Assembly: GCA_002779075.1 (NCBI GenBank)
Contig: PEXK01000019.1
Location: 1 to 8,681, forward strand
DNA: 8,681 bases
Source: Candidatus Diapherotrites archaeon CG08_land_8_20_14_0_20_30_16
Lineage (GTDB): Archaea; Iainarchaeota; Iainarchaeia; Iainarchaeales; 0-14-0-20-30-16
Direction of reading: 5' to 3'
Shown here: positions 1,491-3,486 of the stretch, piece by piece
Layout of the letters: each line of letters starts with the position of its first letter
How positions within the stretch are numbered: position 1 is the first letter of the stretch
The notes under the pieces: generated by a model
The model's database searches: none
The model's input: only the letters and a program-made list of their open reading frames with translations
What the model was told of the DNA's origin: nothing
Position numbers and translations under genes: made by a program

Positions 1491-1562
1491 CGCCTCGGCC
1501 GGGAATTGAACCCGGATCTGAACCGTGACAGGGTTCGATCATAACCATTAGACCACCGAAGC
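1491..1562 (-). tRNA. tRNA-Asp (anticodon GTC), 72 nt, no encoded CCA, no intron
   Basis: The reverse complement reads GCTTCGG TG GTCT AATGGTTA TGAT C GAACC CTGTCAC GGTTC AGAT CCGGG TTCAATT CCCGG CCGAGGC G. The acceptor stem is 7 bp with one U3:G70 wobble. The D-arm carries G10:U25, which is typical of tRNA-Asp, and GG in the loop. The anticodon stem is a perfect 5 bp and the loop is CU-GUC-AC. The T-arm is CCGGG/CCCGG with a TTCAATT loop. The discriminator is G. Confidence 0.92.
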
Positions 1563-1732: not shown

Positions 1733-1830
1733 CAGTATCACTTAAATATATATATCTTGAGGAGTAATGTTTATAAGTCTTTAGCATGTAAGGGTTTTGC
1801 ATGGAATTAGCTTTAAAGAGCACTAAAAGA

Positions 1831-1838
1831 ATATAAAT
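1831..1838 (+). promoter_or_regulatory. candidate BRE/TATA (AAAAGA-ATATAAAT) for the 1875..5657 gene block
   Basis: A purine-rich stretch followed by ATATAAAT lies about 37-44 nt upstream of ATG 1875. GGTGGTGG at 1866-1873 provides SD-like GGTG. The predicted TSS near 1860 would exclude the TTG at 1842 used by the ORF track. Confidence 0.35.
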
Positions 1839-1874
1839 ACTTTGGAGTGTTTTTGTTATGGCTTGGGTGGTGGC

Positions 1875-3104
1875 ATGGTTTTAGATTTGTCTAATCAAAA
1901 AGGTTATGAAAAAACAATAGATGCAATAATTCAAGAGTTGGAAAGAGAAAACCCAATTTCTACGAAACGAATTAGCAATGAGATTGTGGATTATTGTGTA
2001 ACTAAAAATGATACAGCTAAAATCTATATTCCTGTGATAGTTTACATAGTTTACAAATCTTTGACACAAAACCACATTGTAAATTCAAAGATTTGGAAAC
2101 GCAACAAAGGAAAATTACTGCTTTTCTTTGAAAATCTTAAAAGATCTGAAGATACTGATTTCAAAAAACAATTAAACAATTTTGTATTTTTATTTGAAAA
2201 AGATGACAAAGATTTCTTTTATTATGTGAAAAACATTTCAAGAAAAGGGAGAGTAAAAGTAGGGGCAAGATTGTATTCTATGGGGTTTTCAATAAAAAGA
2301 GTTAGTGATCTTTTAGAAGTTAGCAATTTTGATTTGCAAAGTTATTTGTCAGACACACAAATGCATAATCAGAAAGTGCCAGAAAATTTATTAGTCCCAA
2401 AAATTGAAATGCTGCTAAAAGAAAGCAAAGATGTAATTTTTGATTCTGGTGCATTGATTTCTATTGGAAATGTTGGTTTGATAAATGTTTTTGAAGAATT
2501 CAAACAAAGAAATCCTGATGTAAATTTATATATGACAGAAGCAGTGCATAACGAAACAATAGATATTCAAGAAAAAGTAATAAGGTTTGGTTGGATTGGC
2601 ATACAATATGAATATTTGATTAAAAAAGGTATTTTTACTTTAATTGCAAAAGATAAAATGCCAAAGAACGGAACATTAGAAGATTTATGCAACACTTTGT
2701 TTTACACAAGATATGGAAAATTAGAGTTATTGCAAAGAGGAGAACTAGAAAGTGTTGTTTTTGCACAAAAAAACAATTGTGTTTTGGTTATTGATGAAAT
2801 AGTAACAAGATGGCTAATAGAAGCGCCATTAAAACTTCATAAATTGATGGAATCCAGATATAAAGAAAAAGTAATGTATGATAAATCAAAATTAGATCAA
2901 GCAAATGCAATGTTAAAAGAAGTGTCAGTTATTAGAAGCGTTGATTTTATAGGTTTTGCAATAAAACAAGGCTACTTTAAAAAATATGACACTTTGAATT
3001 TTAAAAAGCCATTATTATATTCTTTAAAGTATGGCGGTTGCGCTACTACTTATGAAGAAATAGATTCTTATATTGCTAAGGGTGATGTTAATGTCAAAGA
3101 TTGA
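1875..3104 (+). CDS. fusion-like protein: N-terminal helical (possibly wHTH) region + UPF0175-like HTH + COG2405/DUF3368-type PIN-like domain
   Basis: The ORF track begins at TTG 1842. The first in-frame ATG (1875) has upstream GGTG and is preferred, giving 409 aa. Residues 137-172 in ORF-track numbering (RVKVGARLYSMGFSIKRVSDLLEVSNFDLQSYLS) resemble the UPF0175 pattern a..LY..g.lS.g.aAel.gvs..eF...L. The segment VIFDSGALISIGNVGLINVFEEF...LYMTEAVHNETI resembles the COG2405 N-terminus (DsSPLIaLakIGrLdLLk.lf..i.iP.aVyeEv). The segment LQRGELESVVFAQKNNCVLVIDEIVTRW resembles GEaEaIaLA.e.nadlLLiDe..aR. The segment VSVIRSVDFIGFAIKQGYF...KPLLYSLKYGG resembles the DUF3368 tail (kviGtlGiLl.Ak.kGli..vkplld.L...G). 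All similarity is recalled from memory, not computed. Confidence 0.6.
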   Translation: MVLDLSNQKGYEKTIDAIIQELERENPISTKRISNEIVDYCVTKNDTAKIYIPVIVYIVYKSLTQNHIVNSKIWKRNKGKLLLFFENLKRSEDTDFKKQLNNFVFLFEKDDKDFFYYVKNISRKGRVKVGARLYSMGFSIKRVSDLLEVSNFDLQSYLSDTQMHNQKVPENLLVPKIEMLLKESKDVIFDSGALISIGNVGLINVFEEFKQRNPDVNLYMTEAVHNETIDIQEKVIRFGWIGIQYEYLIKKGIFTLIAKDKMPKNGTLEDLCNTLFYTRYGKLELLQRGELESVVFAQKNNCVLVIDEIVTRWLIEAPLKLHKLMESRYKEKVMYDKSKLDQANAMLKEVSVIRSVDFIGFAIKQGYFKKYDTLNFKKPLLYSLKYGGCATTYEEIDSYIAKGDVNVKD

Positions 3105-3486
3105 ATCTGATAAAAAAACAATTTTTTTAGTTGGAGTTACTTTTGTTGTAACCTATATTCTTCTTTATTTTTTGGGTACAAATGGAATATTCAACAACAT
3201 AAATTCTCCATGGTCAAATCATTTGTTTGTAATTTGTTTTTTCTTTTTTGGGCTGTTCCTGTTTGATTATTTGCAAAAAGAATTGGAATTCAATTTTGCT
3301 GAATTTTACATAGGAATTATTTTACTGATTCTATTATATTTTGCATTTTATTTGGCATATTGGATTTATTATTCCCAGGTTCAAGGCGTGTTTTCGTATT
3401 TGATTAACTCGCCATATATACACATCGCAATAAGCTTTTTTGGCGGTTGGTTAGCATTTTTCCTTGTTAATTACAAAAACAAATAA
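3091..3486 (+). CDS. small polytopic membrane protein (about 4 TM helices), unrecognised family
   Basis: The ORF track starts at TTG 3073, and in-frame ATGs lie at 3085 and 3091. ATG 3091 sits 5 nt after GGTGA (3081-3085) and is preferred, giving 131 aa. It overlaps the upstream gene (stop 3102-3104) by 14 nt. Hydrophobic, aromatic-rich segments: IFLVGVTFVVTYILLYFLG, LFVICFFFFGLFLFDYL, FYIGIILLILLYFAFYLAYWIYY, IHIAISFFGGWLAFFLV. Confidence 0.7.
   Translation: MSKIESDKKTIFLVGVTFVVTYILLYFLGTNGIFNNINSPWSNHLFVICFFFFGLFLFDYLQKELEFNFAEFYIGIILLILLYFAFYLAYWIYYSQVQGVFSYLINSPYIHIAISFFGGWLAFFLVNYKNK

Follow-up and report, generated by a model that had tools for sequence, protein, structure and literature searches.

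UPF0175 proteins (COG2886, PF03683) are found exclusively with PIN domains of COG2405, the pair being a predicted toxin-antitoxin system (PMC5499597, PMC2701414). More precisely, pairs of UPF0175 with COG2405/DUF3368 proteins have been predicted to be VapBC-like type II systems (Makarova 2009, PMC2701414; Matelska 2017, PMC5499597). The searchable literature holds no biochemical data on any UPF0175-COG2405 pair or on any member of the family described here. The locus analysed lies in a window of 8,681 nucleotides (the whole stretch of DNA under study) and resembles these pairs in combining homologues of both modules in their usual order, the helix-turn-helix (HTH) upstream of the PIN domain, in the DUF3368 helical tail of its PIN and in the abutting or overlapping genes of its split relatives. 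However, its N-terminal part has an extra helical bundle of ~120 aa, and its PIN part has a helical insert of ~35-40 aa and a conserved R-S-x-[DE] motif. Also, Pfam models stay below threshold on the window's protein (P0001), which is one polypeptide. Moreover, UPF0175-COG2405 pairs are patchy and mobile, whereas the present family is found in most genomes of the phylum, mostly as a single copy, and is vertically inherited and usually in an operon with a GNAT acetyltransferase gene.

VapBC systems (FitAB, 2bsq; Rickettsia VapBC2, 3zvk; Shigella VapBC, 6sd6) share with this protein the PIN fold and the acidic site (Z 6.7-9.5), as well as a DNA-binding partner encoded upstream. Nonetheless, VapB antitoxins are small, labile and separate proteins of AbrB, RHH or Phd folds, while the partner here is an HTH plus a helical bundle, covalently attached. 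HARP (PIN_5, 7f3e), a PIN-like nuclease with a housekeeping role and a length of ~190-220 aa, likewise contains an inserted helical pair (Z 8.8), but it belongs to another PIN subfamily and is without an HTH partner, and RNase P RNA and the module co-occur in 55/58 high-quality genomes of the phylum.

Gene structure and the N-terminal domain

1830-1873, + strand: putative promoter and ribosome-binding region before the ATG at 1875 (read from the sequence)
1875-3104, + strand: whole fused gene, 409 aa, P0001 (ORF list, translation, full-length homologues, same fusion in genome G151)
1875-2234, + strand: N-terminal all-helical bundle, residues 1-120, of no specific known fold (AlphaFold model, alignment)
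2238-2399, + strand: UPF0175-like helix-turn-helix region, residues ~122-175 (hhalign; sub-threshold PF03683 matches in relatives)
2391-2435, + strand: fusion junction, residues ~173-187, …KIEMLLKE-SKD-VIFDS… (from the split genes of genome G104)

The open reading frame runs uninterrupted from the ATG at 1875 to the stop codon at 3102-3104 and translates into 409 residues. Upstream, a putative TATA-like element (AATATAAATA, 1830-1839) and a Shine-Dalgarno-like run (GGGTGGTGG, 1865-1873), with GGTGG as the putative ribosome-binding site, can be read from the sequence. An earlier note on this DNA counted from an upstream TTG at 1842, and its residue numbers correspond to the ATG numbering plus 11, its aa 137-172 being residues 126-161 and its D201 being D190. 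Full-length homologues of the fused protein come from independent metagenomes (n = 15, 401-437 aa, 47-65 % identity), and G151, another genome of the window's genus, carries the same fusion with 63 % identity and no stops. Set beside the split genes of G104, from the same genus, the junction spans what are there the C-terminal helix of N and the initial strand of PIN; in G104 the first gene ends with …MLTKEFD and its stop codon, and the second begins 1 nt later with MRNLIFDS…. The overall reading of that note, a single chain with a UPF0175-like HTH and a COG2405/DUF3368-type PIN in antitoxin-then-toxin order plus an extra N-terminal region, is borne out.

In the AlphaFold model of residues 1-183 (pLDDT 91, pTM 0.83), the N-terminal domain is helical throughout. 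Strands are absent from residues 1-186 in both this model and that of the full-length protein. Within the bundle, Y57, K61, H67 and W74 are conserved in the family alignment. A possible winged-helix signature had been read at residues ~14-37; the quoted stretch in fact lies in the first two helices of the bundle (8-23 and 27-43 in the model) and the loop between them, and a winged-helix domain is rejected because there is no β-hairpin wing in this strandless region. Searches with the N-terminal domain alone return only generic helical bundles in VIA-align (Z ≤ 7.5) and weak PCI-domain rows from proteasome lid, COP9 and eIF3 subunits in Foldseek (E ≥ 0.26, probability ≤ 0.63). A PCI or other specific relationship is not claimed.

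The model of the HTH region shows helices 112-135 (long and basic), 140-147 and 151-161 and then a low-confidence linker at residues 163-171. Conserved positions are K124, K128, Y134, G137, S139, Y157 and T161. The conserved N-tail reads T-x-I-H-D-E-E in split forms and T-Q-M-H-N-Q-K in P0001. When the upstream partners of canonical DUF3368 PINs were used as the hhalign template, the HTH region matched these UPF0175-like proteins with a probability of 94.2 % (E 1.1e-7) and the whole N domain with 89.8 % (E 1.8e-6), in 52-53 columns, against 0.5-1.3 % for the cross-controls. The comparison takes in the UPF0175 HTH core pattern (A..LY..G.lS.g.AAel.g.s..ef) and points to homology at the profile level. 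PF03683 is also the most recurrent sub-threshold Pfam match in the relatives (9/39 and 5/27, best E 1e-4). On P0001 itself PF03683 gives no match, and so does not reach its gathering score, and no model of the Pfam and NCBIfam scans is significant. This remote similarity of ~50 columns suggests that residues ~122-175 are distantly related to UPF0175. The UPF0175-like HTH proposed earlier thus holds as profile-level homology (hhalign 90-94 %), but not as a Pfam assignment at threshold.

The PIN half and its acidic residues

2424-2822, + strand: PIN core, residues 184-316 (fold matches, invariance in 113/113 relatives)
2442-2444, + strand: D190, in the PIN core
2553-2555, + strand: E227, in the PIN core
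2793-2798, + strand: D307-E308, in the PIN core
2823-2927, + strand: family-specific helical insert, residues ~317-351, with helices 318-329 and 337-347 (hhalign gap, model)
2928-3083, + strand: DUF3368-like C-terminal helical tail, residues ~352-403 (aligned to canonical tails)
2943-2945, + strand: D357, candidate fourth acidic residue (E or D in 113/113)

In the model, the C-terminal half (residues 184-409) folds as a PIN domain, with Z up to 10.4. The VIA-align matches include 1y82 (residues 181-375, Z 10.4, rmsd 3.5, 145 aligned) and 2mdt, the only solved COG2405 member (Z 9.9, rmsd 3.2, 119/119 aligned), and below them in the ranking stands a long list of VapC, Nmd4 and Nob1 PINs. All 16 matches with Z ≥ 8 are PIN domains, including 3zvk (Z 9.5), and Foldseek gives a probability of ~1.0 for 1ye5, 5h4g and 1y82. 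Also, with 20 canonical DUF3368 proteins from the phylum as the hhalign target, the probability reaches 98.6 % (E 5.1e-16) in 174 columns, tail included, compared with ~1 % for the unrelated-profile control. Judged by these profiles, the C-terminal half belongs to the COG2405/DUF3368 branch of PINs, and, of the features described in the earlier note, the PIN-like part finds support in fold and profile and the DUF3368-like tail in profile. The arrangement of the two domains in the full-length model is uncertain (pTM 0.62).

The insert is missing from canonical DUF3368 PINs, where it appears as a template-side gap of ~38 columns in hhalign (insert of ~35-40 residues), and in the tail R354, S355 and G388-C389 are conserved. 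PF11848 gives no match on P0001 at E ≤ 10, thus falling short of its gathering score, and at E ≤ 1 it is found in only 2/113 C-domain relatives. Within the ESM Atlas (Pfam 38.1), it is annotated on 59 % of the members of P0001's own cluster and on 74-77 % of those of the 224-235-aa clusters, and precomputed database annotation assigns it to P0005 and P0018. HMM profile searches of PDB sequences with two family alignments gave chance matches only (E ≥ 0.09).

Among relatives spanning a deep divergence (25-35 % identity), D190, E227, D307, E308 and R354 are invariant in 113/113, and positions 290, 316 and 357 are acidic in the same 113, with either E or D at 357; G289-E290 form part of the PIN core. 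The metal-binding site of the PIN superfamily comprises an Asp behind strand 1, a Glu in the next helix, an Asp behind the central strand and a fourth acidic residue; at the sequence level, this set would then be retained as D190, E227 and D307, with the fourth member at 357. The N-terminal Asp (D190) and the acidic pair of the IDE motif had been reported as retained, and the retention of the acidic residues is borne out. Because these acidic residues are kept in all 113 relatives, the protein is likely an active nuclease.

A two-gene family with recurrent fusions

In most relatives the two parts are separate genes. All 43 split loci inspected consist of two abutting genes, N (~185 aa) and then PIN (~225 aa), with the UPF0175-like HTH carried by the gene upstream of the PIN in 43/43; the N gene abuts or overlaps the PIN gene in 30/30 loci, to which 13 further split loci were added. 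The split N protein already has the helical region regarded as extra in the fused chain, and the split PIN already has the insert. The parent of the fusion is therefore not the ordinary small UPF0175/DUF3368 pair, as had been supposed, but a distinct and enlarged two-gene family.

This family is present in 177/214 genomes of Iainarchaeota/Diapherotrites (DPANN), usually with one match each, and in 48/58 high-quality genomes of the phylum. One family-level lineage (f10) is without the module, which is then not strictly essential. By contrast, just 25/151 genomes of the phylum have canonical small DUF3368 pairs, which are sometimes multi-copy. With 20 GTDB families as labels, the PIN tree requires 19 changes, the lowest number that could be reached (shuffled mean 35.5), and this congruence with taxonomy indicates vertical inheritance. 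The mobile, patchy and often multi-copy distribution of type II toxin-antitoxin systems is thus not what is observed, although an addiction module that became fixed at an early date could also be inherited vertically. A low-sensitivity locus search with one family alignment gave 2 genome loci and 0 viral contigs, which does not count as evidence that viruses lack the family. Taxon lines of the ESM Atlas extend outside the phylum, to Nanobdellota and Microcaldota, and serve as leads only.

Among the GTDB genomes examined, confirmed fusions are restricted to the window's genome (G000), G151 and G072. G000 and G151 are fused (support 97), while G104 of the same genus and G153 and G102 of the same family are split, and the fusion in G072 is independent. 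In addition, well-supported branches among 191 C-domains force at least nine changes between the fused and split states. The fusion is a derived state that appeared within the genus of the window and, independently, elsewhere. Fusion would be easy to reach, as the two genes lie in one frame in about 20 genomes, with just 1-2 stop codons between them. The open-frame lengths of G153, G106, G031 and G210 had made them candidates for fusion, and these were rejected as overlapping or stop-separated split genes. Since the enlarged split family is near-universal, mostly single-copy and vertical in the phylum, the repurposing predates the fusion. The proposal of a repurposed regulator or nuclease is favoured in a domesticated form, but the fusion would not be the event that brought it about.

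The fused gene overlaps the next open reading frame:

3073-3486, + strand: overlapping downstream 137-aa membrane ORF (ORF list; neighbour)

After the N-PIN genes, this ORF is conserved in the same genus (g1) only, and it holds the position that a GNAT acetyltransferase gene occupies in most other families of the phylum, where GNAT usually lies downstream. In other families, GNAT and then a convergent ProRS follow the N-PIN genes. A search of G000 with one query protein found no GNAT orthologue, and the rest of family f1 yields only weak generic GNAT matches. Cdc48 lies ~400 nt downstream in the window and is syntenic within g1 only; with synteny so limited, a functional link to Cdc48 is not supported.

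Probable domestication and alternative readings

We consider it fairly probable that the locus encodes a domesticated UPF0175-PIN complex, with N and PIN fused covalently, and not a classical mobile toxin-antitoxin system. A toxin-antitoxin-type pair would have been domesticated into a fixed cellular component whose N and PIN parts act as an obligate 1:1 complex, which would explain why repeated fusion is tolerated. The complex may be catalytically active as a Mg2+/Mn2+-dependent endonuclease, with RNA as the most likely substrate and the N part being a built-in subunit for nucleic-acid binding, targeting or gating rather than an unstable antidote. Once the two are fused, control would be conformational or substrate-driven instead of proceeding by degradation of a separate antitoxin. 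The argument that a fused chain could not work by classical differential stability is a reasonable one, as the window yields a single 409-aa polypeptide and not the two separate products of a type II system.

A more specific form of this domestication is tentative, and on balance we would not yet rely on it: the pair could have been captured early in Iainarchaeota, perhaps in DPANN more widely, and turned into a housekeeping nuclease for RNA processing or surveillance, in which the former antitoxin targets the substrate and works with the co-transcribed GNAT. If this is true, the repeated fusions, some by loss of one stop codon, would be natural experiments for an obligate complex.

Both proteins carry hypothetical annotations and are missed by Pfam models, and they are now linked to the UPF0175-COG2405 toxin-antitoxin type. 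The family's version behaves as a vertically inherited core gene set and not as a selfish element. DPANN genomes are very small, and the gene pair is likely important because it is kept as a single copy in ~80-85 % of the genomes sampled. Moreover, repeated fusion is classically taken to indicate that two proteins are coupled both physically and functionally, and the family offers a clean, testable case of toxin-antitoxin domestication. P0001 would provide a compact single-chain construct for biochemistry on this PIN subfamily, the practical impact being modest until a substrate is found.

Domestication has to be weighed against a functional single-chain toxin-antitoxin or defence switch, in which N would mask the PIN active site and be removed or unfolded under stress or infection to release a growth-arresting RNase. 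The antitoxin-then-toxin order and the homology to a predicted toxin-antitoxin pair agree with such a switch, cleavage or unfolding could start at the linker (163-171), and the PIN of a split-gene relative (L029) matches the PADLOC candidate system PDC-S70 (E 6e-10). Possible agents would be a protease or the neighbouring Cdc48/VAT unfoldase with the proteasome. However, the Cdc48 neighbourhood is not conserved outside the genus, GNAT standing there elsewhere, so the unfoldase-dependent or proteolytic activation suggested earlier lacks comparative support. Also, a near-universal, mostly single-copy and strictly vertical family is unlike mobile toxin-antitoxin or defence cassettes, truly canonical DUF3368 pairs of the same phylum are patchy, and patterns from close homologues found no relative on viral contigs in the low-sensitivity search. 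A switch of this kind is consequently unlikely.

VapBC-type complexes autoregulate their own operons, and P0001 might similarly be primarily a DNA-binding transcription regulator, with the PIN serving dimerisation, co-repression or ligand sensing and not catalysis. The conserved HTH region and the basic helix before it fit this role, and the COG2405 cluster includes members with incomplete active sites, '2-5 (+/-)' (PMC5499597). Nonetheless, all candidate catalytic acidic residues are either invariant or always acidic in 113/113 relatives of deep divergence, a pattern difficult to account for unless the domain cuts its substrate or at least binds metal, which makes a purely regulatory protein a still less likely outcome than the switch.

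Far less probable is a HARP-type protein-only RNase P, or another housekeeping PIN such as Nob1, in disguise. The fold search also retrieved Aquifex HARP (7f3e), the PIN of P0001 carries an inserted pair of helices, PIN_5 (PF08745) gives weak Pfam matches in 4/113 relatives, and RNase P RNA was not detected in the window's 81 %-complete genome. However, HARP is no more prominent than dozens of VapC-type matches, the profile comparison puts the PIN firmly with DUF3368 proteins, and the PF08745 search of the window's own genome pointed to a different locus, below the cut-off. Replacement of RNase P is rejected, given its RNA in 55/58 high-quality relatives.

Finally, that an assembly error or frameshift joined two genes, an idea invited by the two genes of most relatives and the lone stop codon between them in some, can practically be dismissed because the uninterrupted architecture recurs in the 15 independent homologues and in G151 and the junction sequence is conserved across the fused homologues.

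The fused gene and its two halves

The single-chain fusion proposed in the earlier note is borne out by 15 full-length homologues of 401-437 aa (47-65 % identity) in independent metagenomes, which can be aligned with the window's protein over its whole length and conserve its junction, and by a second genome of the same genus (G151), which carries the same uninterrupted gene with 63 % identity. Against this evidence, the chance that the gene is an assembly artefact joining two genes is practically negligible. An exhaustive phmmer search with the fused protein retrieved 555 representative clusters (E ≤ 1e-3) that fall into three sizes: proteins of about 400-440 aa match the full query; those of about 215-240 aa, which are the majority, match residues ~185-400 only; and those of about 183-188 aa match residues ~3-183 only. 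The N- and C-terminal halves are referred to as N and PIN.

The fused gene and the features around it in the window (GC about 30 %)
1491-1562, minus strand: tRNA-Asp (GTC) gene, ~310 nt ahead of the fused gene and in opposite orientation to it
1830-1839, plus strand: AATATAAATA, upstream of the fused-gene ATG, read from the sequence
1865-1873, plus strand: GGGTGGTGG, preceding the ATG of the fused gene, read from the sequence
1875 (ATG) to 3102-3104 (stop), plus strand: fused ORF, 409 aa, from the ORF list and translation
3073-3486, plus strand: 137-aa predicted multi-pass membrane ORF, sharing 32 nt with the 3' end of the fused gene

Residues are numbered here from the ATG at 1875; the earlier numbers are higher by 11 because they were counted from an in-frame upstream TTG at 1842. 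The position of the membrane ORF is kept in the genus's two other genomes (57 % and 45 % identity), with Cdc48 next.

The PIN-like nature of the C-terminal part is upheld by its fold. With the alignment-based AlphaFold model of the whole protein (pLDDT 86, pTM 0.62, called confident), a structure search matched residues 181-375 to PIN domains almost exclusively, Foldseek concurring: 1y82 (Z 10.4, rmsd 3.5, 145 aligned), 2mdt (SSO1118; Z 9.9, rmsd 3.2, 119/119 aligned) and VapC proteins (Z 8-9.5), with Nmd4, Nob1 and HARP also among the list. Matelska et al. (PMC5499597), in classifying PIN domains, list 2mdt as the only structure available for the COG2405/DUF3368 cluster. Moreover, a profile-profile comparison was made with 20 canonical DUF3368 proteins (153-171 aa, PF11848 matches in genomes of the same phylum) and their upstream genes. 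The alignment of 113 C-domains matched the canonical PINs along 174 columns with a probability of 98.6 % (E 5.1e-16); this match takes in the C-terminal DUF3368 helices, and a gap of ~38 columns marks a family-specific insert, helices 318-329 and 337-347. Controls with N and PIN profiles swapped gave 0.5-1.3 %. Also, the ESM Atlas annotates PF11848 on 59 % of the cluster to which the fused protein belongs and, among the clusters of 224-235 aa, on 74-77 %.

For the N half, comparison with the canonical upstream proteins (RHH plus UPF0175-like, 95-121 aa) gave 89.8 % (E 1.8e-6) for the whole domain and 94.2 % (E 1.1e-7) for the HTH region, aligned over residues ~122-175. PF03683 (UPF0175) is the commonest recurring sub-threshold Pfam match in relatives (9/39 and 5/27). 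The UPF0175-like HTH is supported at profile level only; Pfam and NCBIfam scans of the 409-aa protein gave no significant model. Residues 1-120 form an up-and-down helical bundle, and the N part modelled alone (pLDDT 91, pTM 0.83) contains no strand at all, so that the possible N-terminal winged helix has to be abandoned. No specific structural relative of this bundle was found (Z ≤ 7.5, Foldseek E ≥ 0.26). In split N proteins, a T-x-I-H-D-E-E motif (residues ~161-168) is conserved in a low-confidence linker ahead of the last helix; in the fused lineage of the window this stretch reads T-Q-M-H-N-Q-K and has lost the acidic residues.

Distribution, gene context and recurrence of the fusion

The window's genome belongs to a DPANN archaeon of the phylum Iainarchaeota/Diapherotrites. 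A C-domain profile search detected the family in 177 of the 214 genomes of the phylum (48 of the 58 of high quality), generally with one match per genome. In 30/30 loci from this search, a same-strand gene of 182-188 aa (once 212 aa) lies directly upstream of PIN, usually abutting it or overlapping by a few bases, and matches the N-domain profile with E 1e-40 to 1e-51; another 13 split loci show the same arrangement. A gene of ~150 aa follows PIN directly in 30/33 loci and encodes a GNAT acetyltransferase (PF00583, E 2.6e-15), beyond which a convergent prolyl-tRNA synthetase gene is present in 14 loci. A GNAT gene that follows or overlaps PIN is thus the state of most Iainarchaeota (L022-L051, L053, L056, L059, L061-L064 and L069-L073, e.g. 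L029:2168-2635). For the window's family, four loci were examined (G000, G151, G104, G153), and in none does GNAT come after the module.

The N-PIN module descends vertically in the phylum: on the maximum-likelihood PIN tree, GTDB family codes need 19 changes for 20 groups, the minimum possible, against a shuffled mean of 35.5. In contrast, ordinary small UPF0175/DUF3368 pairs are patchy in the same phylum (25/151 genomes, up to four copies). These ordinary PINs (153-171 aa; L002-L021, e.g. L002:1495-2273) come after a 95-121-aa protein with an RHH-like N-terminus and a UPF0175-like C-terminus; at L008:503-1665 and L011:201-1254, the DUF3368 PIN follows a 186-189-aa protein that is UPF0175-like at its C-terminus and whose N-terminal domain is larger and of another kind. 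The family coded f10 (G014, G038, G116, G205 and others) gave no N-PIN match except a marginal one in G028 (E 4e-6, C-domain profile); RNase P RNA is present in several f10 genomes that are >93 % complete. Outside the phylum, the distribution is given by ESM Atlas taxon hints only.

On the PIN tree, the window's gene groups with that of G151 (support 97), the next branches outward being G104, of the same genus, and then G153, of the same family, both split; G102, of the same family and outside the tree, has two separate matches (residues 5-179 and 184-402). From the split state of these three genomes, it follows that the fusion is derived and arose within the window's genus. At the junction in G104, N closes with …MLTKEFD-TAA and, after a single intervening base, PIN starts ATG-CGA-AAT-TTA-ATT-TTT-GAT (MRNLIFDS), the window's equivalent being …MLLKESKDVIFDS. 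An independent fusion of 435 aa occurs in G072, of another family; with it, the GTDB genomes inspected yield confirmed fusions in G000 (the window's genome), G151 and G072 only. Extra fusions suggested by long open frames were rejected, being overlapping separate genes on inspection. In a set of 191 C-domains of genomic and metagenomic origin, at least 9 changes between the fused and split states are required by well-supported branches, and 20 by the best FastTree tree. These counts are rough because some of the split entries may be truncated proteins. In about 20 genomes, N and PIN share one frame with one or two stop codons between them (e.g. TAA then ATG; L025:949-2172, G197). A single stop loss would thus be enough for fusion, and translational read-through of the intervening stop would likewise yield the fused protein.

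Active site and proposed role

Across the 113 C-domain sequences (25-55 % identity), D190, E227, D307, E308, R354 and G388 are invariant; positions 290, 316 and 357 are Asp or Glu in 113/113, and position 355 (S355) is Ser or Thr. D190, E227 and D307 match, in the order of the chain, acidic residues one to three of PIN nucleases, and D/E357, in an R-S-x-[DE] motif after the insert, is by its position a candidate fourth. Because the acidic positions are so conserved, they argue for a PIN half that is catalytic or at least metal-binding.

That these domains form a pair, and that the pair is predicted to be a toxin-antitoxin system, is already known, and HTH-PIN fusions are mentioned in PMC5499597. 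The UPF0175-COG2405 type is known from comparative genomics only (PMC2701414, PMC5499597), and a literature search found no experimental study of this pair. Within the searchable literature, three things appear to be undescribed: the enlarged subfamily, below Pfam thresholds; the presence of its operon, vertically inherited and for the most part single-copy, throughout most of a DPANN phylum's genomes, usually with GNAT; and the recurrent fusion of the N-PIN genes.

The tight gene coupling, together with the repeatedly tolerated covalent fusion, indicates that N and PIN form an obligate complex. The ancestor would be a toxin-antitoxin-type UPF0175-COG2405 pair, which has probably since turned into a fixed cellular component in the phylum. 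The simplest interpretation is that the complex is an endonuclease that depends on metal, probably an RNase, whose helical bundle and HTH would serve for nucleic-acid binding or, as a built-in subunit, for gating the active site. With both parts in one chain, control by selectively degrading the antitoxin cannot operate, and a core gene has no need of it.

It is unlikely that the protein is a toxin-antitoxin or defence switch in a single chain that proteolysis or Cdc48 would open. Unfoldase-dependent activation, raised in the earlier note, would find its agent in the nearby Cdc48, but the conservation test failed and the synteny is limited to the window's genus (g1). Somewhat less probable still is a pure transcription regulator, which would make use of the HTH; the invariant acidic residues of the PIN half speak against it. 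A HARP-like RNase P is very improbable: HARP is among the structural matches and a search of the window's genome (0.75 Mb, 81 % complete) did not detect archaeal RNase P RNA (RF00373), but 55 of the 58 high-quality genomes of the phylum do possess RNase P RNA, which defeats the idea.
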